A stretch of DNA of 32,000 nucleotides from Candidatus Harpocratesius repetitus (GCA_021498095.1 JAIZWK010000001.1:3810001-3842000), one strand, 5' to 3'. Positions 3,764 to 31,996 are shown, counted from the stretch's first letter. A program made the numbers and translations. The notes: generated by a model from the letters alone, not told the origin.

Positions 3764-4644
3764 TTTTGTTTTGTAATTTGTTGATATTCCGACGATTGAT
3801 TTAATGATAAAATCTTTGGTTCTGAGGTATTTCGTAGACTTAAATAAATGAAAATAGGTGAAAGCATCCAAATTAAGTGCCCAATAGTATATAAGATCAT
3901 ACGAATGGAAGTTTCAGTTAAATAGGGATGAAAAATTTCAGATAAAATACCAGTAAAGAACCAGTAATAATCACCAAATGTAAATAGGGCAACACCAAGA
4001 AAAATATACCATATCTTCCGTCGTAAAGATTTTCTTTCTATATCGCGAATTATAGAGATCAATACAGCACCTAGCACAACAGTTGCAAGTGTAAATAAAA
4101 ATATGATTAGATAGAGCCCAAGAGACGCTAATCCTGTCCATTCGGCATTAACCAACACTTTATTATCAATTTTTCGAATTTGAATACGATCACCTATTAC
4201 TGCCAAAACAGTGATAAAAAGAATAGTAAAATTCATTAGTCGATTTTGAAAGAACATCCGATTTGTTCGGTGTTCTCCATATTTTAAATAAAAACTAAGA
4301 ATGAGATAGACCCATGCCATTAAAATGGCACCAGTCATAGCTATATCGCGAAGGATATTTGCAATATAAAGCGATGGAATCGTTAATGGATAACCTTTAT
4401 AAATTTTATTTGCCATGTCAGATGAAAGTGAAAAAGGAGCAATTAAGTAAATAATACAATCTAGAGTTATGTAGAGAAGCCACCCTCCAATTCCGATTAA
4501 GAATAATAATGTTAAATGGGGAATTCGCCCATCTTGATCTCTAAGTTTTTTCAATTTTTTTAAAATTTTAAGGAAGATGATAAAATATAAAATAGATTCG
4601 AAAATTTTAGGAATGATTAAATAAAGTTGCATCTCTTCATACAT
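3760..4644 (-). CDS. Uncharacterised integral membrane protein with about 7 TM helices
   Basis: 294 aa with seven hydrophobic segments separated by basic loops. No catalytic motif recognised. Confidence 0.8.
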   Translation of the reverse strand: MYEEMQLYLIIPKIFESILYFIIFLKILKKLKKLRDQDGRIPHLTLLFLIGIGGWLLYITLDCIIYLIAPFSLSSDMANKIYKGYPLTIPSLYIANILRDIAMTGAILMAWVYLILSFYLKYGEHRTNRMFFQNRLMNFTILFITVLAVIGDRIQIRKIDNKVLVNAEWTGLASLGLYLIIFLFTLATVVLGAVLISIIRDIERKSLRRKIWYIFLGVALFTFGDYYWFFTGILSEIFHPYLTETSIRMILYTIGHLIWMLSPIFIYLSLRNTSEPKILSLNQSSEYQQITKQN

Positions 4645-9995: not shown

Positions 9996-12900
9996 TTATT
10001 TTCTTTTTGATTTTCGGATAGTTTTTTTTGATTTATTTATAGATCTTTTCACTTTTTCTTTTTCAGCCGATTCATCGCTTTTTCTTTTAGAATCAACTTT
10101 TTTTTTGGAAGATTTTTTCTTTATTTTTTTTTGGATAGCTTTTGTTGATTTTTTAGTTGTTCTTTTTTTAGCGGTTGATTTTTTAGTTGTTCTTTTTTTA
10201 GTTGTTGTTTTTTTAGCGGTTGTTTTTTTAGTTGTTGTTTTTTTAGCGGTTGCTTTTTTTGTTGTTGTTTTTTTGGCAGTTAACTTTTTATTTGTAGTTA
10301 TTATTTCAACTGTTTCCTTTTTTGAAGTTTTCTTTTCTAAAGATTTCTTTAAAATTTTAGTTTGATTGTAATAGCTTTCCTTAATTTTTTCTTGTATTTT
10401 TTGTTCTTGTTCTATTTTCGCAATGATTGCGGCTTTTTCTTCCATCTTTTCTTGTATATTCAATTGAATTTCTTTGAGATAGCGTTCATATTCCAATTTC
10501 TTATTTTCTAATCTTTTTATCTCTTCATTTATGATCAAAAGTTCAGGATGTATTAATTCATCGAATTTTTCTTTTTCATTTGATGGAATAATTTTAATTG
10601 ATTTGGCTTTTTCAAAAAAATCAGAAGAAAGAAGTAATTGAGGTGTAGGATTTAGCTTTAAGAAATCGTTCTGAGATATTTCTTCTATTTTATATACTAA
10701 ATGAGGAAAAACTACAATTTCCATAAAAATCTCAGGAGGGTCTTCAAGAGTTTTTATTGTAAATCTTTTTTGAAAGTCAAGTTTTGGAGGAATTTTTTCA
10801 AGTGTTTTTTTTGGAATTCGAATTATTTCTTTATTGGGTGATTTAGCAGAATAAATTATGATTTTTCCCATATGAATAAGAAAATCTGAAGTATTTCGAA
10901 TAAATGGTTCAATAATATACTCATCTAGTGAAGTTAAAGATCGTTCTAATTTAATCCCATATTCGATATGCGTTGAAGCATAAAAAAACACTGGTTTTAT
11001 ACTTTCCTTTTTGTAACTTAAAGGAGAATGAATGTACTTTTGACCTGCTGATAGATAAGGAATTTTAATTATCAATTCATCTTTATTTTTTCCAGTAATC
11101 GATAAAATAAGAATAAGATTCCAAAGACAATTTGAAGAACTTGGATTTAAAATTTCTATAATCAATTGTTTGGTTGAACCACAATAATAGATATTTAATT
11201 GAATAGGAATTGCAAGTTTTTTATATCTAAAATTTGAAAAACTGGTAATATTCTTCATATTTTGAAAATCTAAGTAATTAGGAGTATTATATCCTAAGAC
11301 ACTATAAATAATCTTTGTATCTTTTTGTTTTTCTAAATTGTACACATCCCAATTAGCAAGATAAAAAGAGTCTGCGACAGAATTTACGTTAATCTCAGGA
11401 GAACTTGATTGAATTGAGAAATTCGAAGATATAATATCATAAAAATTAATGGCAGAAAATGGAACAATTCCTGAATTTTTCAATGACCAATTATAGATAA
11501 TTTCAAATGATGTTGGTTTGTATTGTGTACTGCATTGCATGAACAATATTTTGCGACGATTTCTATTATCTACCTGTGACCTAATTTTTAAATCATTTTC
11601 AATACTTTGGAGATTCTGACTTAAAAATGCAATAATTTCTTGTTGAAACTCTAATTTTTGTTTCATTTTTGCTGAAGACTGAATAAATTCGAGTTGCTCA
11701 TCAGAATATTTAAGAAGATCTGCAATTAATTGATTTGACATTGATAAAGTGAGTTGTGCAACACTATCTTGAATAATAAAGAAATTTTCCTTAAAATTTT
11801 CGATAAATTTTAAAAATGTCTTAAAAGAAGACTCAATCGCCATTGTGTTTTCTGCAGCAACAGTTTTTGTTAAGGATTTTATAGTATGTTGCAATGTTTT
11901 CAAATATTTTTGAGATTTTTGGTAAATCAGCCCTAGATTTTTTTGTTTCTTTTCTAAATCAGATAATTTATTTACTTTTGTGATAATAGAGACAATTTTT
12001 CCAAATTTTTGAAATCGATTAATAAATTCATCTATAAAGGTATTTATCGCATTCTCTGTTGAGTTGCGCAGATCAACTTTAATAAATGGAATAGAACTGT
12101 GAATTTCGTCTAATGTAGAGTATAACAAATTATAAGTCTCTGCGGAGTATTTCTGGCTGATTAAAATTTCATCGCTAATTGCTTTAAAAAATTCATGAAT
12201 ATTTGATTTTTCTAATTCAACAATTTCTTTTTCTTCGAGTAATTCGTTATAGTCTTCTTGTAATTTTGCAAACTGATTTGATTGTAATTGAATTTTTTTT
12301 TTAAAAAAATCTTTCTTTAATTTTAGTTTATTTAGATTTCTATCAAAACCAAATTGATTTAATTCTTCTAATTGGATTTCTTTTATTCCTTTTTGAATTA
12401 AAAACTGATTTTTTACTTCTAATAGTTTTTGATAATCATCTAATAGTTTAAGTGATTCATCATAAATTTCTTCTAATTCTAAATATTTACGAATTGAATT
12501 AGTTAGTTTTAGTTTTTGCAAAATTGAATTAAAAGTATCAAAAATCTGATATATATCTGCAACAAAATCATCAAATTCTTTAGAAGAAACGTCAATAGCA
12601 TCAACTGCGGCTTTATGGATTACTTCAGCCATTGAATAAATAGAATCATTTATATTTGTAGAAAACAATGTTAGAGTTTCAGTAATGCTAAAAATGGTTT
12701 GTTTAAGCAGATTTTCATCCTTAATTTTTTTACATTGATTTAAAGGAGCAATAATATCCTTTAAATCGCGCAAATAATCATTAAAATCATGAAGATTTTC
12801 AGATATTGCAGTTTGGGAATGTTCTAGCATGCGGTTTTTTAAATCAGATACAGATTCATCAATTGAATCAACCAGCCAAGTAAGCATTTCTACATGCTGA

Positions 12901-13121
12901 GATATTTGAATTTTAGATTTACTTTCAATTTCAACAAGTTCATTTATTTTCTGTTTCGCATCTTGAATTTCGCTTTCTTTCTCTTCTAAAAACTTTACAA
13001 AACGATCTTCTTTTTTCTCGATATTTTTCGCCTTTAAAGAAAGTTCTCGTATTTGTTTTGCTAATTTTTCACGAGAAGCATGAAGAATTTCATCAGTTTT
13101 TGAAAGAAGCTCGCTGGGCAC
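9996..13121 (-). CDS. Large hypothetical protein: coiled coil, beta-rich domains, coiled coil, then a Lys-rich H1-like tail
   Basis: 1041-aa ORF with GTG start. Helical residues ~1-520, beta-strand patterned ~525-830, coiled coil ~860-930, highly basic C-terminal ~110 aa. Confidence 0.85.
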   Translation of the reverse strand: MPSELLSKTDEILHASREKLAKQIRELSLKAKNIEKKEDRFVKFLEEKESEIQDAKQKINELVEIESKSKIQISQHVEMLTWLVDSIDESVSDLKNRMLEHSQTAISENLHDFNDYLRDLKDIIAPLNQCKKIKDENLLKQTIFSITETLTLFSTNINDSIYSMAEVIHKAAVDAIDVSSKEFDDFVADIYQIFDTFNSILQKLKLTNSIRKYLELEEIYDESLKLLDDYQKLLEVKNQFLIQKGIKEIQLEELNQFGFDRNLNKLKLKKDFFKKKIQLQSNQFAKLQEDYNELLEEKEIVELEKSNIHEFFKAISDEILISQKYSAETYNLLYSTLDEIHSSIPFIKVDLRNSTENAINTFIDEFINRFQKFGKIVSIITKVNKLSDLEKKQKNLGLIYQKSQKYLKTLQHTIKSLTKTVAAENTMAIESSFKTFLKFIENFKENFFIIQDSVAQLTLSMSNQLIADLLKYSDEQLEFIQSSAKMKQKLEFQQEIIAFLSQNLQSIENDLKIRSQVDNRNRRKILFMQCSTQYKPTSFEIIYNWSLKNSGIVPFSAINFYDIISSNFSIQSSSPEINVNSVADSFYLANWDVYNLEKQKDTKIIYSVLGYNTPNYLDFQNMKNITSFSNFRYKKLAIPIQLNIYYCGSTKQLIIEILNPSSSNCLWNLILILSITGKNKDELIIKIPYLSAGQKYIHSPLSYKKESIKPVFFYASTHIEYGIKLERSLTSLDEYIIEPFIRNTSDFLIHMGKIIIYSAKSPNKEIIRIPKKTLEKIPPKLDFQKRFTIKTLEDPPEIFMEIVVFPHLVYKIEEISQNDFLKLNPTPQLLLSSDFFEKAKSIKIIPSNEKEKFDELIHPELLIINEEIKRLENKKLEYERYLKEIQLNIQEKMEEKAAIIAKIEQEQKIQEKIKESYYNQTKILKKSLEKKTSKKETVEIITTNKKLTAKKTTTKKATAKKTTTKKTTAKKTTTKKRTTKKSTAKKRTTKKSTKAIQKKIKKKSSKKKVDSKRKSDESAEKEKVKRSINKSKKTIRKSKRK
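10140..10289 (-). repeat. Coding tandem repeat, 10 x 15 bp, encoding KKxT(A/T/K) pentapeptides
   Basis: Translates as KKLTA KKTTT KKATA KKTTT KKTTA KKTTT KKRTT KKSTA KKRTT KKSTK; exactly 150 bp. Confidence 0.9.
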
Positions 13122-24633: not shown

Positions 24634-25536
24634 TTATTTAATTCGAGATGGATCAAATTTGTATACGAATTTCCAATTATTTTTTAATAAATTATTTAGT
24701 TTCCTAATCTTTGGAACAATTGATGAAAAGGATGATAGTTCATGGCTGTCACTTCCAATTACCATGGGGATATCTTCCATTCGAAAATGTGCAAGTAATG
24801 ATTCTTTTGGAAAACTATCTTGCCATTGATATCTGTATCCGCTGAGATTTATCTCCATAAAGGTTTTTGTTTTGTCGCATAACCAGGCAATGTCGAATAG
24901 ATAACGTCTATAGTTATTTTGGATTTCCTTTGATAACGTTGAAAATGAGACGAAACGAAAAATAACGTCAGGATGTGCAATAATATCAAAACGTTTAGAG
25001 TCAATCATCTCTTGAATCAATTTAAAATATCGATCAATTAAAGATTTAAACTGAACTTGGTTCTGAATTAACGGTTGAACGTTTTTTTTAACTGTTATTG
25101 CACGAAACAGATCAATTTCATGAACGCTTCCTGTTATATAATCAAATTGTGAATAATAATCATCCAAAAATTCCCAAATACGATCTTGAATACTAGGGTG
25201 ATAACTTACTTCCAATCCTAAGGAAAAATGTTGAAACTCGCTTTTTAAATCGTCAAATTCTTCCAAATAGTTATCTATTGTGTTAAGATTTAACTTCCAA
25301 GAACCTAAATCAGCATATTTTGGAGGATGATGAATGTAATAACCAGTTTCAAAATGATCAGTAAAGCCAATATGAATTTTATATCGTTCAGATAGATTAA
25401 GCCATTCATGTGCAGTAGGACCGTTTAAATTATCTTGGCTCCAATTAGTATGAATATGCAAATCATGATCCCATTGAGGTGTTAATGATTCAAATAAACG
25501 AAATGGACGATGAGAAATTTTATTTGTTGGTGTCAT
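24634..25536 (-). CDS. PHP-domain hydrolase, histidinol-phosphatase (HisJ/HisK)-like
   Basis: PHP metal-binding motifs DLHIHT, GFTDHF, GLEV, GSVHE, IIAHPD, MEIN and GSDSH. ATG at 25536 lies inside the end of hef. Confidence 0.88.
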   Translation of the reverse strand: MTPTNKISHRPFRLFESLTPQWDHDLHIHTNWSQDNLNGPTAHEWLNLSERYKIHIGFTDHFETGYYIHHPPKYADLGSWKLNLNTIDNYLEEFDDLKSEFQHFSLGLEVSYHPSIQDRIWEFLDDYYSQFDYITGSVHEIDLFRAITVKKNVQPLIQNQVQFKSLIDRYFKLIQEMIDSKRFDIIAHPDVIFRFVSFSTLSKEIQNNYRRYLFDIAWLCDKTKTFMEINLSGYRYQWQDSFPKESLLAHFRMEDIPMVIGSDSHELSSFSSIVPKIRKLNNLLKNNWKFVYKFDPSRIK

Positions 25537-28087
25537 AATTATCAACTTCTTTTAAGAAATAATCTAAATTTGCATATTTATGAATTTTTTCTGCTAGAAC
25601 GGAGCCTATTTGATGGATTTTTTTCAGATCTTCAGGTGAAGCATTGAAAAGAGCACGTAGAGTTCTAAATTCGCGCAGTAAATCTTGTGCTCGCGTTAAA
25701 TTAATCCCAGGAATTCCTGCAACAATTTGCTCTAATTGTTTATCCAATTGTTCAGGTATTTTTTTAAATCGAATAGAAAAAGATTTCGAATTACTTTTTT
25801 GTTCTTTAAGGGCAAGAGCCCGAATCATTTCGGCCGAATCATGAGCATCTTGAGTTTGAATAAGAAAAACTTGAAATTTTAACATTATACTGGTTAAGGT
25901 GCCCAAGATTGCAGCTCGATTAATACTTATAATTTTGTGATAATTCCCTTCTAAAAGAAGAATGGGATGACTGAATTGATTACGAAGACGACGAAGTTCG
26001 TCAAATAATCGCCCATCTTTAATTGAATCAACAAAATCTTGAATAGATTTACGTTCAATACCACAACGTTGAGAAACAATATAATCACCAACTAGTAGTG
26101 TTTGTAAATCAATGGTTACATTCATTTCTGATAAAATTCGTGTGATAGGCGATGCAGTTTCACGCGAATCTACTAATATATATGGACTTGTTCCTTGTTT
26201 TTTTAAGGAAAAATCTGTAATTTTAGAATGAATAATTGTGTCTGAATCAGAAATATCAACTGACTCATTTTCTTTTAAGTGATTTAATGTATGATTTTCA
26301 TCAAGATGTATTGATTGAGTTGTTATTAAAGATGAAGGATCTTCCGAATGTTTTATGCTGTCATTAGATTTAGTCGAATCTTGAAGATCATGCAATTCTG
26401 GTGGATTTTGTATGTATTTTAATAGGTTATTCTCTTGCTTTGACTTTGAGTTTTTAAATTTCTTTGAATCTTGCCCTGGATTACTAGAAAATTTATTCAT
26501 TTCATATTGAAGATCCTTTAGAATTCTTTTCATTTCTTTCTCTCTATGTCGTTCTGCCCAGTAATAAGCATCTTCTCTTGTTCCTGTGGTTTTTAGAATG
26601 ATTACCTTTCCTGAAGAATTACGACCCGTCCTTCCACGACGTTGAATTGATCTAATTTCACTTGGAATTACGTCAAAAAAGATCACAACATCACATTCTG
26701 CAATATCGAGTCCTTCTTCAGCCACTGAAGTTGCAACTAAAATATTATAAATACCTGTTTTAAAATCTTGAAGAATTTGCTTTTGTTCTTTTTGAGTTAA
26801 ACCTTTTTCTTTTCCCTTATTTTGTTGTCCAACAAATCTCATAGCTCGAAAGAGTGGTACTTCATTGATTTTTTCAACTAGAATTTTTACTGTATCACGA
26901 AATTGACAAAATATTAAAATTCGAGAATTATCACTTGATTTGAATTGTTCATGCAATAAGGACATAAGAATTTTAAATTTGGGATGAAAAATCTTCTGTT
27001 CTTCTAATTCTTGTGCATGTTGTATAATTTTATTCATCGATTCTGAAGAAAATAATTCTCGAAGAGAGACACCACCTTTACCTGCTTGCACCTTTTGCAT
27101 GTTTTTTTCTAAATATGTTGTTAAAGCAGCTAAACCTTGAGCTTCAATCAATTCCTTCATGTGAGATACTCTTATTGCATTCGATAGTAATTTTTTACAA
27201 TAAAGTAATCGGGGTAATTCACCTTGATTGTGATTTCGAATAATTAGAAGGTCGAGCTCTTTACCAGCACTCAGAAGATCTTTTCGATTTACCTTTGATA
27301 TATCTCGGGACTTAATCAAACTATTTTTTTTTAATTCGGATAAAATTTGCTTTTCCAGTTGATTAAGCGTCTCTAATATTTCCTTTAGTTCATCAGGCAG
27401 TTGTACTTCAATCCATTCTGTAGAAACATTTTGAATGTAAGGTTTTACATCAGAATCTGATTCTGTCCGTATTTCTACAGTATTTAGATACAAATTTTGC
27501 ATAACTTCCATTATTTTCTCTCGATTCTTACCTGGTGATGCGGTCATAGCTAATGTTTTTCGATTTGAAACAAATTTATCTTGCCAATATTTTTTTGCAA
27601 TAAAAGTATAGGCATAATCCCCGACAGCGCGGTGAGCTTCATCAAATATTATTAAAGAAACATTTTTGAATGAAAATCTTCCTGAAATTAGATCATTCTG
27701 CACAATTTGTGGAGTTAAGAATAATGCACGTATTGAAGACATTTGATATAATAAAGCTCGTTTTTCAGGTGTTATCGATCCAGTAATAAGAGGGAGTTGT
27801 TCCGGCTCAAAAATGGTCAAATCACAAAATGTTTGCTGATGTTGTTCAACTAACGGGCGTGTTGGTGCCAAAAATACAATTTTCGCATTAGGATCCTTCC
27901 ATTGATGCACAGCCAATAATAAAGCAATAATGGTCTTCCCCAATCCTGTTGGAATCACAACCAAACAATTGTTACGGGCACATGTAGCAAAAATTGCTTG
28001 CTGATATTTCCGTTTAATTACCTTATTTGGTTTTAATAAAGGATGATTCACATATTGAATATTTGATGATGGTATTGGAGCGACCAA
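25520..28087 (-). CDS. hef: Hef: ERCC4-like (FANCM/Mph1) SF2 helicase fused to an XPF/ERCC4 nuclease and HhH motifs
   Basis: PTGLGKT, FLAPTRPLVEQH, IIFDEAH, MTASPG, LVATSVAEEGLDI, IQRRGRTGR. After a low-complexity linker come VDSRE, GDY, ERKSIQDF (intact ERKxxxD) and HhH motifs GIPGI and IHQIGSV. TTG start. Confidence 0.96.
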   Translation of the reverse strand: MVAPIPSSNIQYVNHPLLKPNKVIKRKYQQAIFATCARNNCLVVIPTGLGKTIIALLLAVHQWKDPNAKIVFLAPTRPLVEQHQQTFCDLTIFEPEQLPLITGSITPEKRALLYQMSSIRALFLTPQIVQNDLISGRFSFKNVSLIIFDEAHRAVGDYAYTFIAKKYWQDKFVSNRKTLAMTASPGKNREKIMEVMQNLYLNTVEIRTESDSDVKPYIQNVSTEWIEVQLPDELKEILETLNQLEKQILSELKKNSLIKSRDISKVNRKDLLSAGKELDLLIIRNHNQGELPRLLYCKKLLSNAIRVSHMKELIEAQGLAALTTYLEKNMQKVQAGKGGVSLRELFSSESMNKIIQHAQELEEQKIFHPKFKILMSLLHEQFKSSDNSRILIFCQFRDTVKILVEKINEVPLFRAMRFVGQQNKGKEKGLTQKEQKQILQDFKTGIYNILVATSVAEEGLDIAECDVVIFFDVIPSEIRSIQRRGRTGRNSSGKVIILKTTGTREDAYYWAERHREKEMKRILKDLQYEMNKFSSNPGQDSKKFKNSKSKQENNLLKYIQNPPELHDLQDSTKSNDSIKHSEDPSSLITTQSIHLDENHTLNHLKENESVDISDSDTIIHSKITDFSLKKQGTSPYILVDSRETASPITRILSEMNVTIDLQTLLVGDYIVSQRCGIERKSIQDFVDSIKDGRLFDELRRLRNQFSHPILLLEGNYHKIISINRAAILGTLTSIMLKFQVFLIQTQDAHDSAEMIRALALKEQKSNSKSFSIRFKKIPEQLDKQLEQIVAGIPGINLTRAQDLLREFRTLRALFNASPEDLKKIHQIGSVLAEKIHKYANLDYFLKEVDNYDTNK

Positions 28088-28253
28088 GATTATGACCCTA
28101 ATATCACTAATTGTTCACCCTTTTAATTTGATAGGGCGATAATGCTTTTTTAAAAAAATATAAATACTGCATTAACCAACGGTATTGTATTAACCTCATC
28201 GAATAAAAATTTAGAATAATAGATGATCGGTTAATTCATGATATTCTCAAAAA

Positions 28254-28258
28254 GGAGG
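28254..28258 (+). promoter_or_regulatory. Shine-Dalgarno-like GGAGG upstream of the histone gene
   Basis: GGAGG lies 10 nt before the ATG at 28269. Confidence 0.55.
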
Positions 28259-28268
28259 ATTAAATGGA

Positions 28269-28610
28269 ATGGCGAAAAAAACAACAAAAAAGAAGAAAAA
28301 TCCAAATACTAAGCCAAAAACGACTACAAAAAAAAATATTAAAAATAGAACTAAACCAGCGGCTAAATCAAAAGGAAAAAGCAAACGAACATCTGCAAAA
28401 CAATCAAAAACATTCATCTCAAAAGCACCAATACGTAGATTAATGCGTGAAGAAGGTGCAAGATTGGTTAGTGATGACGCTTTAGCTATCTTGATTAAAA
28501 CTTTGGAAAAGCATGCAGTTGAAACCACCAAAAAAGCAATTGAAATCGTAAAAGATGATCGAAGGAAACGAATTACAGCCAAAGATATCACTTGGGCAAC
28601 TCGAGCATAG
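28269..28610 (+). CDS. Archaeal histone (HMf-like fold) with a long basic N-terminal tail
   Basis: Fold FISKAPIRRLMREEGARLVSDDA...AIEIVKDDRRKRITAKDI aligns by eye with HMfB LPIAPIGRII...GAERVSDDA...RHAGRKTIKAEDI. Residues 1-48 contain 18 K, 2 R and no D or E. Confidence 0.93.
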   Translation: MAKKTTKKKKNPNTKPKTTTKKNIKNRTKPAAKSKGKSKRTSAKQSKTFISKAPIRRLMREEGARLVSDDALAILIKTLEKHAVETTKKAIEIVKDDRRKRITAKDITWATRA

Positions 28611-28679
28611 AATTCAATCATTAAATTAACTCAGTCCGATTCAACAAGAACTACAAGCACTTGGTTGATAATATTTCAC

Positions 28680-28687
28680 TTTTTTTT
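28680..28687 (+). terminator. Oligo-T stretch, possible archaeal terminator of the histone gene
   Basis: T8 run about 70 nt after the histone stop. T-runs are common in this AT-rich DNA, so the evidence is weak. Confidence 0.35.
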
Positions 28688-28757
28688 CTTTATTGATTTA
28701 CAAATGTTACAAAAAATTCTATTATTTTCGTTTATTTTCTAAATAAGTGATTAATTT

Positions 28758-29177
28758 ATGCAAATTCGCAATTTTTCAATGGAATACTATCATCAAGTAT
28801 ATCAATTGTGGGAATTAGGAAATTTATCGCTCGGAATTTCCGACACACCTGAACAGATTCAACGTTTTGCAACCAAAAATCCCGATTTATTCTTAATTGG
28901 GCTCATTAATAATCGTGTTATTGGTGTAGTTATGGGTGCATTTGATGGTAGAAGGGGTTATGTTCATCACTTAGCAGTACATCCTGATTTTCAGAAACAA
29001 GGTATTGGAACGACTTTGATGAAGGAATTAATGACTCAGTTTCAAGCCCAACATGTTGAGAAGGTTCATTTATTTGTTGAACGTTCAAATGCAGATGTAA
29101 TTGCTTTCTATGAAAAATTAGGATGGTTTATTCGACATGATCTGGAAATGATGAGCATTATTGTAGTTACATCTTGA
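28758..29177 (+). CDS. GNAT-family N-acetyltransferase (YpeA-like)
   Basis: VIGVVMGAFDGRRGYVHHLAVHPDFQKQGIGTTLM (acetyl-CoA motif A, QxxGxG) and NADVIAFYEKLGW. Confidence 0.92.
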   Translation: MQIRNFSMEYYHQVYQLWELGNLSLGISDTPEQIQRFATKNPDLFLIGLINNRVIGVVMGAFDGRRGYVHHLAVHPDFQKQGIGTTLMKELMTQFQAQHVEKVHLFVERSNADVIAFYEKLGWFIRHDLEMMSIIVVTS

Positions 29178-29249
29178 TAATCTTTCTCAATAAATTCTGT
29201 ATTTATTACAAAAGCATAATCTTTTCAACTTTAAACGTAAAAAATATTT

Positions 29250-29762
29250 ATGAAGGTAAGGTGCGCTTGGTGTGGCAAAATTATTCAAGAAGATTTATCC
29301 AATCCAGATTACGCTCAAATTTCTCATGGAATCTGCCAAGAATGCATCTATAATTTAGAATATCACAAAATTCCTTTGCAAGATTTAATTGATTCATTAC
29401 AACCTCCCATTTTTATTATAAATGCTGAAGGAAAGATTGAAACTGCAAATAAAACAGCACAAATTGAAATTAATAAACCAATTTCAAAGATTGAAGGAAT
29501 GCTAGGAGGAGATGTAATTGAATGTGCATATGCAACCTTACCAGGTGGTTGTGGAAAAACAGAGCATTGTACTGGTTGTGGTATTCGCAATACTGTAAAT
29601 TATACATTTTCAACTGGAAAAGCTAAGCACGATGTAAAAGTTTACCAGTATCTTCAAACACCAAATGGTCAAAAGCGCGTTGAATTGACACTCAATACGG
29701 AAAAAGTAGGAAATTTAGTTTATTTACGGATTGATGGTCTATCTAAAATAGAATATGAATAA
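29250..29762 (+). CDS. Stand-alone Cys-rich PAS-domain protein with an N-terminal CxxC...HGxCxxC motif
   Basis: CAWC...SHGICQEC, then PAS-like LIDSLQPPIFIINAEGKIETAN and GDVIEC...GCGKTEHCTGCGIRN. No output domain. Confidence 0.75.
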   Translation: MKVRCAWCGKIIQEDLSNPDYAQISHGICQECIYNLEYHKIPLQDLIDSLQPPIFIINAEGKIETANKTAQIEINKPISKIEGMLGGDVIECAYATLPGGCGKTEHCTGCGIRNTVNYTFSTGKAKHDVKVYQYLQTPNGQKRVELTLNTEKVGNLVYLRIDGLSKIEYE

Positions 29763-29917
29763 AATATTTTAAAATTAATATAATAACTTAGTCGATCTTT
29801 ATCATAATTGATCATAACTAACTATCTAATTCAAGATAATAAACTAAACACATAACAAAGAGCGTAAATAAAGAATAAGAAAAAGCCTCAAAGAATGAAT
29901 AAAAAGAAATAAAATTA

Positions 29918-30020
29918 TGGGCCGACCCTGGATTGAACAGGGGACCTCCGCGATGTGAACGCGGCGTTTTAATGTCTTGCTGAATAATTCAACAAAATAT
30001 AACCACTAAACCATCGGCCC
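29918..30020 (-). tRNA. tRNA-Val(CAC) with a 30-nt intron in the D-arm (about 29969-29998)
   Basis: Acceptor stem GGGCCGA/UCGGCCC plus A73; anticodon stem CCGCG/CGCGG with loop UU-CAC-AU; variable loop AGGUC; T-arm CCCUG-UUCAAUC-CAGGG. Removing 30 nt after GGUUAU gives a normal 73-nt cloverleaf. Confidence 0.92.
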
Positions 30021-30044
30021 AATATTTTGATTAATAATAATTCG

Positions 30045-30055
30045 ATATATTAAAA
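30045..30055 (-). promoter_or_regulatory. TATA-like box upstream of tRNA-Val
   Basis: TTTTAATATAT lies about 25-35 nt upstream of G1 of the tRNA. Confidence 0.4.
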
Positions 30056-30060
30056 AAAAC

Positions 30061-30354
30061 TTAGTAATTTTCATTTACCAGCCATGAGACCGGGATCATC
30101 TGATAAGAACCATCAGGCATGCTACGACGGATTGTAATTGGTAGGACCTTCTTATCGAGTTCATAAGCGGCAATTTCAATTGGATCGGTTAATTCTGGAG
30201 GGATTTCTGTAAATGGACTTGCTTGGAAGCTGATCTGGAGCGCCCGAGCACCAATAATACGGGATCTTTCGTATCTGGTTATGAAAATGCTTCCTATTTT
30301 AATTTTTCGTTCCGCTTCTATATATTCCTCATATCTTTTTAAAGTTCGACTCAC
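30061..30354 (-). CDS. rpoK: DNA-directed RNA polymerase subunit Rpo6 (K/omega, RPB6 homolog)
   Basis: ITRYERSRIIGARALQIS...DPIEIAAYEL...LPITIRRSMPDG. GTG start. Confidence 0.97.
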   Translation of the reverse strand: MSRTLKRYEEYIEAERKIKIGSIFITRYERSRIIGARALQISFQASPFTEIPPELTDPIEIAAYELDKKVLPITIRRSMPDGSYQMIPVSWLVNENY

Positions 30355-30514
30355 GGTATATCATCCAAAATGTAGTAAGCAAATTAATCCGCCATATAAA
30401 AAAAATTTTTTGATTCTGGTGCATTTTTACTATTCAATTCCCTTTCAAAAAGAGAAAAGTGGGAATTGATTACTGCACCATGAAATTATTTTAGGTGGGA
30501 AGCTTTAGATTTTT

Positions 30515-31360
30515 ATGGAATGGACTCGGAAAAAAATCCTTATGACAATTCTTTTTGTAGCGATTCTGATTTTATCTGTTGTTGTAATGTATTTTGTTAT
30601 TGTGGATGAAACCTTTTTATTTCGAATTATCAGGGAATATTTTATTTTACCTTTATTACGAATTGGTCCTTGGGCTGCAATTGTCTTTTTGTTTCTAATG
30701 GTAATGCAAAGTTTAATTGCTCCAATTCCTTCAGAATTGATTTTATTGTCAGGTGCCATGATTTTTGGATTCTTATGGGGAACTGTTTTGGGTGTTATTG
30801 GCTCTATATTGAGTGGAACAATTACGTATTATGTATCCAAGCAAGGAGGAAGGACTTTACTTGAAGCAGCAGGGGAAAAAATGTCAATGGCACAAAGAAT
30901 GATAGTTATCATGGATGAATGGATTGAAAAATGGGGTATTTGGGCAATTATTGTAGGTCGTGCTGTGCCTGTTATTATGTTTGATCCAGTGTCTTATGCT
31001 GCTGGTATATCGAATATTAAAGCAAAACCTTATACAATAGCCACTGCAATTGGATCAATCCCAAGAGCTTTATTTTTCTCATTTTTAGGTATGAATTTAC
31101 TCGGAGGGCATAACCCAAGTTATATAGCTCAACTTTCTCAAGCTGAAATTACTTCTGCATCAAGCCAATTTAACACAATTTTCTTTGTAATTTTTGGAGT
31201 ACTGGTTGCTATGCTTGTGTTTGCCAATATTTTGTCTTATATGCGTGAACGGGCAAAGAATAAAGAGATTGAAACTCAACCTAAAGATGAAGAAAACAAT
31301 CCTCATCTGTTAGTTGAAAATTATAGAAAGACCAACCAAACAAAAGAAGAAATTAAATAA
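30515..31360 (+). CDS. DedA/VTT (TVP38/TMEM64, SNARE_assoc) family membrane protein
   Basis: APIPSELILLSGAMIFG, YYVSKQGGR, IVGRAVPVIMFDPVSYAAG and TAIGSIPRA. Confidence 0.93.
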   Translation: MEWTRKKILMTILFVAILILSVVVMYFVIVDETFLFRIIREYFILPLLRIGPWAAIVFLFLMVMQSLIAPIPSELILLSGAMIFGFLWGTVLGVIGSILSGTITYYVSKQGGRTLLEAAGEKMSMAQRMIVIMDEWIEKWGIWAIIVGRAVPVIMFDPVSYAAGISNIKAKPYTIATAIGSIPRALFFSFLGMNLLGGHNPSYIAQLSQAEITSASSQFNTIFFVIFGVLVAMLVFANILSYMRERAKNKEIETQPKDEENNPHLLVENYRKTNQTKEEIK

Positions 31361-31414
31361 TGATTAAATGAAAAGAGAAAATAAATCTATTGAAAAAATA
31401 AATCTATTGATAAA

Positions 31415-31996
31415 ATGAAAAATCTTAAACAACCTATTCCATATGGACAATATCCATCTGAAGAAATTCGATTGAAAAATGGAAAAAAAGCAATTATTCG
31501 GTTATTTAAAAAAGCAGATTTAGAAGGAATATGGAAAAATTTTAACGATGTTGTAGAAGAAGGAATTTATTTACCAGTATATACACCTGTAAAAACAGAA
31601 TGGGAGCGAATTTCATGGTATCATGATATTCGAGATGAAGGAAATATATGTGTAGTAGCGGAGAACCCATCAGAGTCTGCTCCGAAAAATATCATAGGTC
31701 AATTAACGATTGAACATATCCCATGGGAAGCTGCAGCGCATGTTGGTCAATTAGGCATTATTGTCCAAAATCAATATCGAAATCAAGGAATAGGCTATAA
31801 ATTAATTCAATATGCTGCAAAATTAGCCCGACTAATTGGAAAACAAAAACTCATTCTTAGTACATTTACTTCCAACAAAATGGCAATTCATCTTTATAAT
31901 AAATGCGGATTTCAGTCAGTAGGAATTTATCGTCATCAGTATTTTGTTAATGACAGATTTCAAGATGAATTGATGATGGAATGGTTTCTTGACTAA
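31415..31996 (+). CDS. GNAT-family N-acetyltransferase (RimJ/RimL-like)
   Basis: HVGQLGIIVQNQYRNQGIGYKLI, NKMAIHLYNKCGF and DELMMEWFL. Confidence 0.9.
   Translation: MKNLKQPIPYGQYPSEEIRLKNGKKAIIRLFKKADLEGIWKNFNDVVEEGIYLPVYTPVKTEWERISWYHDIRDEGNICVVAENPSESAPKNIIGQLTIEHIPWEAAAHVGQLGIIVQNQYRNQGIGYKLIQYAAKLARLIGKQKLILSTFTSNKMAIHLYNKCGFQSVGIYRHQYFVNDRFQDELMMEWFLD

Follow-up and report, generated by a model that had tools for sequence, protein, structure and literature searches.

Histones with basic N-terminal tails were noted in Asgard archaea in earlier work (Henneman et al, 2018; Grau-Bove et al, 2022; Schwab et al, 2024), and in cultured Loki strains the histones have now been sorted into an untailed family (HLoA), a tailed one (HLoB), and HLoC (Cho et al, 2026; bioRxiv 10.64898/2026.07.02.735847). 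HLoB histones rank with the most abundant cellular proteins and co-localise with DNA; methylated and, rarely, acetylated lysines occur on their tails, and phosphorylation was not detected. In vitro, the GNAT acetyltransferase LoHAT2 acetylates tail peptides and the sirtuin LoSIR2b deacetylates them (Cho et al, 2026). The abundance, co-localisation, and tail-mark data come from strains B35, B36, and HC1. Here we describe a long-tailed relative of these proteins, encoded in a 32,000-nt stretch of DNA from Candidatus Harpocratesius repetitus (GCA_021498095.1, JAIZWK010000001.1:3810001-3842000), which we call the window and whose positions are counted from its first letter. The histone gene predicts a protein of 113 residues with a Lys-rich N-terminal tail of 48 codons (144 nt) in front of a histone fold (Table 1). 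The gene is a new long-tailed member of HLoB, a family already described and partly characterised, and from its sequence and relatives it very probably encodes an HLoB.3-type tailed nucleosomal histone, the ortholog of HLoB.3 in strain B35, with a disordered polycationic tail joined to an HMf-type fold.

The window lies within a single 4.36-Mb contig, a closed chromosome, of a genome with 31% GC, and Harpocratesius is placed in the Promethearchaeia (Lokiarchaeia) in the NCBI taxonomy. The nearest homolog (P0002) carries the annotation 'histone [Candidatus Harpocratesius sp.]', and at the protein level the two folds are 100% identical. The B35 histone sequences are printed in Supplementary Table 2 of Cho et al (2026), and the window protein has in common with the printed HLoB.3 the motifs FISKAP[IV]RRLM, TTKKA, and KD[DE][KR]RKR[IL]TA.DI[TS]WAT. 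Eight loci in the window's genome match PF00808. Five of them lack a tail and are of the 'FAWSP' type, and the other three have tails of about 21, about 32, and 48 aa; the two tailed paralogs other than the window protein resemble HLoB.1/2 (YIAKAPIRRLM ... AADI.AA[EQ]). We built a maximum-likelihood tree on the fold regions of the homologs, the B35 histone sequences themselves not being included. In this tree, a 12-row clade with moderate support (87/93) holds the window protein together with P0011, which is a Lokiarchaeum-like relative of HLoB.3; the untailed paralogs split off at 100/100, and the genome's own HLoB.1/2-like paralogs lie outside the HLoB.3-type clade. The protein therefore combines the features by which we recognise HLoB.3, namely a disordered tail with more than 30% Lys before a nucleosomal fold, the fold signature together with the clade, and a host among the Promethearchaeia with multiple histone paralogs.

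The likeness to B35 HLoB.3 (GNAMCCOK_03971, UYP47653.1) extends beyond the fold signature to the MAKK start, the Lys-rich, acid-poor disordered tail, and the neighbourhood, where a YpeA-like GNAT gene stands next door and a second GNAT gene follows a few genes on. Indeed, the gene order agrees with that in B35, with the histone at GNAMCCOK_03971 and GNATs at 03972 and 03976, and in both genomes untailed HLoA-like paralogs occur beside tailed HLoB-like ones. The two proteins differ in the tail, which in B35 HLoB.3 is 27 aa long and rich in Ala, Pro, and Val; the predicted tail of the window protein is 48 aa long and rich in Thr, Asn, Ser, and Pro.

Evidence for the fold comes from profiles, known structures, and a structural model. 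Residues 51-110 match PF00808 (CBFD_NFYB_HMF; E = 2.8e-11, 44 bits against a cut-off of 21.4), and the protein scores 52 bits against the NCBIfam model NF043032, archaea_histone (cut-off 50). The core histone family PF00125 is also matched above its cut-off by the whole protein, although more weakly than PF00808 (E = 2.8e-8, 34.5 bits); the fold without its tail reaches 26.4 bits, level with the cut-off, so that the tail contributes about 8 bits. The closest relatives in the PDB are HPhA, HMfA, and HMfB (1a7w, 5t5k, 1b67, 1ku5), at about 40% identity over 60 residues, with HPhA reaching E = 2e-8 compared to 1e-3 for H4. In the AlphaFold2 (AF2) model, helices alpha1 (55-62), alpha2 (69-97), and alpha3 (104-112) form the three-helix fold that these proteins have, with a confidence score (pLDDT) of about 90 in the core. 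A Foldseek search of the PDB returned only histones as top matches (HPhA, HMfA/B, H4, and the Asgard HHoB), all with a probability of 1.00, yet the best E-value was no lower than 0.004; such E-values are to be expected when the query is a single histone monomer that includes a long coil. Of the DNA-contact residues and the RxTxxxxD motif of HMfB (HMfB numbering in parentheses), the fold keeps R57 (R10), R99-K100 (R52-K53), and D106 (D59) but departs at R19 and T54. By the criteria of Henneman et al (2018), I93 (L46, a hydrophobic residue in both) and D106 (D59) fit at the dimer-dimer interface, as does the small residue G63 (G16), but the residues at H49 and L62 differ.

We considered and rejected membership in the eukaryotic core histones H2A, H2B, H3, or H4, given that PF00125 is matched more weakly than PF00808, that the tail matches nothing, and that H4 ranks far behind HPhA. 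We likewise rejected homology of the tail to eukaryotic histone tails: the tail alone matched no family in Pfam, and we do not take the gain of about 8 bits against PF00125 as a sign of common descent.

The start codon decides whether the tail belongs to the protein, and the long start is the only plausible one. Reading the frame directly, we found no ATG, GTG, or TTG in frame from 28269 until Met59, which lies inside helix alpha1 and aligns with residue 12 of HMfA and HMfB, and an in-frame stop lies nine codons upstream of the ATG. A Shine-Dalgarno (SD)-like AGGAGG precedes the ATG. Contig L009 of the closest relative (Harpocratesius sp.) has the same SD, ATG, and first seven codons, and its region upstream of the gene is 93% identical. 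In the window's genome, GGAGG occurs at -16 to -4 of 3% of the starts of long open reading frames (ORFs) and of 0.27% of random sites, an 11-fold enrichment; this type of SD is a real but minority signal. An alternative ATG at 28264 was tried and rejected as the gene start, as it yields a 59-aa out-of-frame product, rich in Lys and Gln, that has no histone fold. The original prediction, made from the DNA alone, had proposed an archaeal histone with a long basic tail and had taken a good SD as support for the long start. Both points are supported, for a histone of nucleosomal type in an Asgard genome: the profile, structure, and model evidence places the fold, all 12 homologs found by word search are tailed and the protein is assigned to HLoB.3, and the SD stands with its ATG in the nearest relative, with no competing in-frame start before helix alpha1.

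Counting residues 1-48, the tail, gives 18 Lys, 2 Arg, 9 Thr, 4 Ser, 4 Asn, 3 Pro, and 4 Ala, with neither Asp nor Glu, which corresponds to 37.5% Lys (18/48) and a net charge of about +20. The long ORFs of the window's genome, used as a proxy proteome, contain 7.9% Lys and 11.7% Asp plus Glu. At these frequencies, a stretch of 47 positions would hold at least 18 Lys with a probability of 6.6e-9, and the probability of no acidic residue is 0.003; a comparable 48-aa stretch occurs in just 5 of the 2789 ATG-initiated ORFs of at least 150 aa in the genome. Because the genome's own long ORFs have such different frequencies, the composition of the tail is far from chance and is no by-product of a genome with 31% GC. 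In the AF2 model, computed with 21 aligned orthologs, residues 1-54 have no secondary structure and a pLDDT of 52-62.

Every ortholog has a basic tail, which starts with MAKK or MTAKK and ends in a junction rich in Ser, Thr, and Lys before FISKAP; MAKK is nearly invariant, and the middle varies in both length and sequence. Basic tails are found in 12 of the 12 word-search homologs and in most profile matches. No stop interrupts the tail frame of any ortholog, and the indels are in frame. The DNA of L009 allows the two parts of the gene to be compared at close range. Over the 65 codons of the fold, there are 0 nonsynonymous and 6 synonymous differences and no indel, and over the 48 codons of the tail there are 10 nonsynonymous and 3 synonymous differences and a single in-frame indel, 12 nt long, of a tandem ACTGCAAAAAAA unit. 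No replacement in the tail creates an acidic residue, and the first 7 and last 10 residues of the tail are identical to those of the nearest relative. Tandem Repeats Finder (TRF) reports short A-rich 10-nt repeats within the tail DNA. These substitution patterns show strong purifying selection on the fold, that is, on the 65 C-terminal residues. Given the in-frame indel and the 10 versus 3 changes, none of them acidic, the same comparison shows a tail that is translated and in which composition, charge, and the two ends are constrained and the sequence of the middle is not.

Tail length varies widely. The tails of the HLoB-type sequences that we compared range from 3 to 76 aa, and those of the HLoB.3-type subfamily from 17 to 52 aa. 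Relatives of the same genus have tails of 52 (P0002), 47, and 38 aa; P0016, which belongs to the HLoB.3-type clade but is a distinct member of it, has a tail of 48 aa with a different sequence, and P0022, in a different clade, has one of 76 aa. The window tail is at the long end, above the published typical range of 16-32 aa for HLoB and HMpB, as compared to 32-64 aa in eukaryotic histones (Cho et al, 2026), yet it is neither unique nor the longest. Long tails arose more than once, since P0022 belongs to a separate clade and the tail of P0016 differs in sequence. Within HLoB.3, the tail thus reaches a eukaryote-like length (47-52 aa in the genus) while the fold stays 100% conserved, which argues that tail length is evolutionarily labile and that the tail is constrained in composition rather than in sequence.

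These observations bear on how far the tail can be called eukaryote-like, as the original prediction had it. Tails of H3 are about 36-44 aa long, those of H2B about 30-36 aa, and those of H4 about 25 aa. Like them, the window tail is a disordered, basic, Lys-rich N-terminal extension of comparable length, on a fold that has H4 among its sequence and structure matches. It differs in that there is no detectable homology between the tails, its Lys content is higher (37.5%), and the protein has neither an alphaN nor an alphaC extension. The term is therefore apt for composition and length but not for descent, since the tail alone matches no Pfam family; indeed, Asgard tails have been described as lacking sequence homology to eukaryotic tails, that is, as convergent (Grau-Bove et al, 2022; Cho et al, 2026). 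As for the other claims about the tail, the predicted count of 48 residues with 18 Lys, 2 Arg, 13 Ser/Thr, and no acidic residue agrees exactly with ours. Of the suggestion that it is rich in modifiable residues, the part that concerns Ser and Thr has no support so far, given that only Lys methylation and, rarely, acetylation were detected in the cultured relatives and no phosphorylation. The proposed check of conservation across relatives showed composition, MAKK start, and junction kept but middle sequence and length drifting fast.

From the biology of archaeal and eukaryotic histones and from the paralog family of B35, we can sketch how the protein might work. The fold would dimerise, probably also with the seven other histone paralogs, and each dimer would wrap about 30 bp of DNA to build particles that resemble nucleosomes or hypernucleosomes. 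Both tails of a dimer would exit near the DNA gyres and act as flexible cationic arms, neutralising DNA charge in cis or bridging DNA in trans. Their charge could be tuned by Lys methylation or acetylation, with GNATs as writers and SIR2 or HDAC enzymes as erasers, both encoded in the genome. The extra length relative to B35 HLoB.3 (48 versus 27 aa) most likely stems from slippage that kept the frame, in low-complexity, A-rich DNA of a genome with 31% GC.

Several observations weigh against parts of this picture. In the fold, R19 of HMfB is replaced by L66 (with R65 beside it) and T54 by R101 (with T103 two residues on, in RKRITAKD), and at the four-helix-bundle (dimer-dimer) positions H49 is replaced by D96 and L62 by W109. 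The departures at R19 and T54 are common to the whole HLoB family. Because the fold departs from HMfB at DNA-binding and tetramerisation positions by the criteria of Henneman et al (2018), the formation of hypernucleosomes by homomers is not assured; the changes could weaken or alter the tetramer interface. In the tail, we found no conserved site in the middle, which argues against a position-specific modification code there. In addition, acid-free tails rich in Lys, Thr, and Ser occur on at least five unrelated proteins of the window's genome, and the tail may be a generic low-complexity module for binding nucleic acids instead of a regulatory platform specific to histones; these similar stretches temper a histone-specific reading of the extra length.

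HLoB.3-type histones as a group have Asp at His49, Trp at Leu62, and RKRIT for RKTIK in loop 2 (window 28554-28597, codons 96-109), and their oligomerisation may be changed or capped.

On the same strand downstream of the histone gene lies a gene for a 139-aa YpeA-like GNAT acetyltransferase (GNAT139), which is closest to E. coli YpeA (PDB, E = 4e-21) and bears a weaker likeness to the N-terminal acetyltransferases RimI, Ard1, and Naa and to Sulfolobus Pat. To our knowledge, no substrate of YpeA has been established. In most same-family relatives, B35 among them, this GNAT comes after the histone. The divergent upstream neighbour is a Hef-type helicase/ERCC4 nuclease, which stands beside the histone in L009, L011, L012, L023, L024, and L028. 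These genes belong to a syntenic block, PHP-Hef (-) / histone-GNAT-orf170-RpoK (Rpb6)-VTT-domain membrane protein-GNAT193-Arf/Ras-like small GTPase, whose window portion (25520-31996) is kept across L009, L011, L012, L013, L023, L028, and L042 with lineage-specific insertions (AFOR plus SDR, a methyltransferase, or a condensation-domain protein). The genome also has two SIR2 and three HDAC-family loci; a SET domain was not found in it. The B35 ortholog of GNAT139, GNAMCCOK_03972, is one of 63 candidate writers in Cho et al (2026), where LoHAT1 and LoHAT2 are the two that were assayed, and the words adjacent, synteny, and operon are absent from the main text of that paper.

Table 1 Features of the histone locus, with positions in the window.
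Feature	Position	Strand	Evidence or remark
1041-aa ORF	9996..13121	-	No Pfam match
Hef-type helicase/ERCC4 nuclease	25520..28087	-	Pfam DEAD, Helicase_C, ERCC4, HHH; divergent upstream neighbour
TATA-like A/T-rich stretch, putative archaeal histone promoter	28146..28166	+	Read from sequence
Shine-Dalgarno-like AGGAGG	28253..28258	+	10 nt 5' of histone ATG; same in L009
Long-tailed histone gene	28269..28610	+	113-aa product
Lys-rich, acid-free, disordered N-terminal tail, codons 1-48	28269..28412	+	Composition; AF2; orthologs; L009 comparison
Histone fold and stop, codons 49-113	28413..28610	+	PF00808, PF00125, NF043032, PDB, AF2
T8 run, putative archaeal oligo-T terminator	28680..28687	+	70 nt past histone stop, before GNAT
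YpeA-like GNAT acetyltransferase, 139 aa (GNAT139)	28758..29177	+	PF00583 E 2.9e-21; NF002959; 147 nt 3' of histone
170-aa ORF (orf170)	29250..29762	+	No Pfam match
Second GNAT, 193 aa (GNAT193), Acetyltransf_3-like	31415..31996	+	Same block; B35 ortholog GNAMCCOK_03976

The strongest rival to a regulatory role for the long tail leaves the identity of the protein untouched and partly overlaps our own explanation. It holds that the extra length does nothing by itself and that the tail is a low-complexity polycation expanding neutrally by slippage in A-rich DNA, in which only net charge matters and no particular site is modified or regulated. We regard this as a real possibility, although not the favoured one. 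The 12-nt tandem-unit indel against L009, the A-rich 10-nt repeats, the 10 nonsynonymous and 3 synonymous changes in the tail set against 0 and 6 in the fold, the 17-52 aa range in the subfamily, and the independent long tails of P0022 and P0016 are all what such drift would leave behind, as are the K/T/S stretches on aIF2-gamma, a ScpA-like ORF, and three other ORFs of the genome. It accounts poorly for the first 7 and last 10 residues that the nearest relative shares and for the nearly invariant MAKK. Acidic and bulky hydrophobic residues are excluded over 48 positions, which argues for selection on tail composition, and in B35 the modified HLoB.2 tail peptide is enriched over its unmodified form (Cho et al, 2026). 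A more radical alternative would remove the tail from the mature protein altogether, through downstream or non-canonical initiation or through proteolytic clipping. The out-of-frame ATG at 28264 does lie nearer the SD (5 nt), but no canonical in-frame start precedes Met59 in helix 1, and the open frame, the in-frame indels, and the composition are kept in every ortholog. Peptides starting at residue 2 were also recovered by mass spectrometry for the paralogous B35 HLoB.2 and for HMpB.1 (Cho et al, 2026). We consider loss of the tail very unlikely and the least probable of the alternatives.

Two further alternatives draw on the neighbours instead of the tail. The histone and GNAT139 might be a dedicated pair of substrate and writer, with the GNAT acetylating tail lysines or the N-terminal Ala. 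The genes are directly adjacent on the same strand in the window, L009/L010, G018 (L011/L025), G019 (L042), L012, L013/L014 (with a 12-nt gap), L017, and L030, and their locus tags are consecutive in B35 (03971/03972); the pair is intact also where AFOR and SDR genes have come between Hef and the histone, and the weaker likeness of the GNAT to RimI/Ard1/Naa and Sulfolobus Pat fits an enzyme of this kind. However, because the whole block is syntenic, adjacency is weak evidence for a functional pair and may be mere inherited gene order. Inserted genes separate the two by 1.5-2.3 kb in G105, G078, and L028, the GNAT is missing beside the histone in L015, and in the window a T8 run falls between them. 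In the sister family, no histone lies within 4 kb of the GNAT orthologs (50-56% identity), and the best tailed histones are of a different, short-tailed type, away from Hef and GNAT. The B35 ortholog is only 1 of the 63 candidate writers and not among the two assayed, and the closest characterised relative, YpeA, has no substrate that we know of. We therefore judge a dedicated pair unlikely, and we are just as doubtful of its wider form, in which the pair would be conserved in Promethearchaeaceae-like Asgard archaea including B35 and the expansion of the tail to 47-52 aa in the genus would add substrate lysines. Still less probable, indeed very unlikely, is that the histone serves as a repair cofactor of the divergent Hef, an MHF/CENP-S-X-like partner of this FANCM homolog, instead of a bulk chromatin protein. 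The head-to-head arrangement in L009, L011, L012, L023, L024, and L028 would suit such a partnership, but the fold is of the nucleosomal HMf/HLoB type: in Pfam at E up to 1 it matches PF00808, PF00125, and, weakly, TAF, DUF2496, and TFIID-31kDa, with no match to the CENP-S or CENP-X (MHF1/MHF2) families. Moreover, Hef and the histone are separated by two inserted genes in G019, L013, L014, and L017, and an antibody raised against HLoB.1 recognises recombinant B35 HLoB.3 (Cho et al, 2026). Against these alternatives, we favour an HLoB.3-type chromatin protein whose tail would act as a tunable cationic arm.

Tailed Asgard histones bear on the origin of chromatin regulation in eukaryotes, a case already made with cultured Lokiarchaeum and Hodarchaeales strains. 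The conserved block, with a small GNAT beside the histone and Hef opposite, offers writer and partner candidates that can be tested in cultured B35. We know of no reader domains in Asgard archaea.

HA of Heimdallarchaeota LC_3 (Henneman et al, 2018) and HMpB of Ca. Margulisarchaeum peptidiphilum HC1 are likewise Asgard nucleosomal histones with Lys-rich N-terminal tails, proposed to exit between the DNA gyres; they differ in belonging to Heimdallarchaeia/Hodarchaeales, in their shorter tails (about 16-32 aa), and in their fold subfamily. HMfB, HMfA, and HPhA, in contrast, are tailless. The C-terminal domain of linker histone H1 and the tails of bacterial Hc1/Hc2 or HupB type are also polycationic, disordered, acid-free, and rich in Lys, Thr, Ser, Pro, and Ala, but they sit on winged-helix or HU folds rather than on a histone fold, and the likeness is compositional only.

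In the course of this work, we came across other unusual genes and proteins. One apparent histone-GNAT fusion, P0017 (271 aa, L030:415-1230), proved to be an artefact, caused by a 1-nt frameshift in a short metagenome contig: the histone of L030 is read in the +2 frame up to ...EDLTWATK-stop and the GNAT begins about 100 nt further on, so that this locus shows adjacency only. Within the block, orf170 encodes a Cys-rich protein with a zinc-ribbon-like N-terminus (CxxC...HGICxxC) that is found downstream of the GNAT, at 45-89% identity, in several relatives.

The basic stretches elsewhere in the genome are diverse. About 2-3.5 kb before the window start, aIF2-gamma (GTP_EFTU plus eIF2_C; C1:3806503-3808089, L035) has an N-terminal extension of about 110 aa rich in Lys, Ser, and Thr, with a weak match to Pfam HC2 (H1-like nucleoprotein). 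Basic tails are also present on the ScpA-like ORF (C1:573655-574755) and on two ORFs with no Pfam match (C1:890430-891692 and, on the minus strand, C1:2230313-2231182). The 1041-aa ORF of the window carries an acid-free repeat rich in Lys, Thr, and Ala (KKTTT/KKATA) near its C-terminus, at about 10160-10300. This distribution suggests that the lineage as a whole tends to add polycationic low-complexity arms to proteins associated with nucleic acids.

The homologs also include two proteins of unusual architecture: P0049 (649 aa) is of calcineurin-like metallophosphoesterase type with an HLoB-type fold fused C-terminally (residues 517-623), and P0018 (374 aa) has four histone-fold stretches in a single chain.

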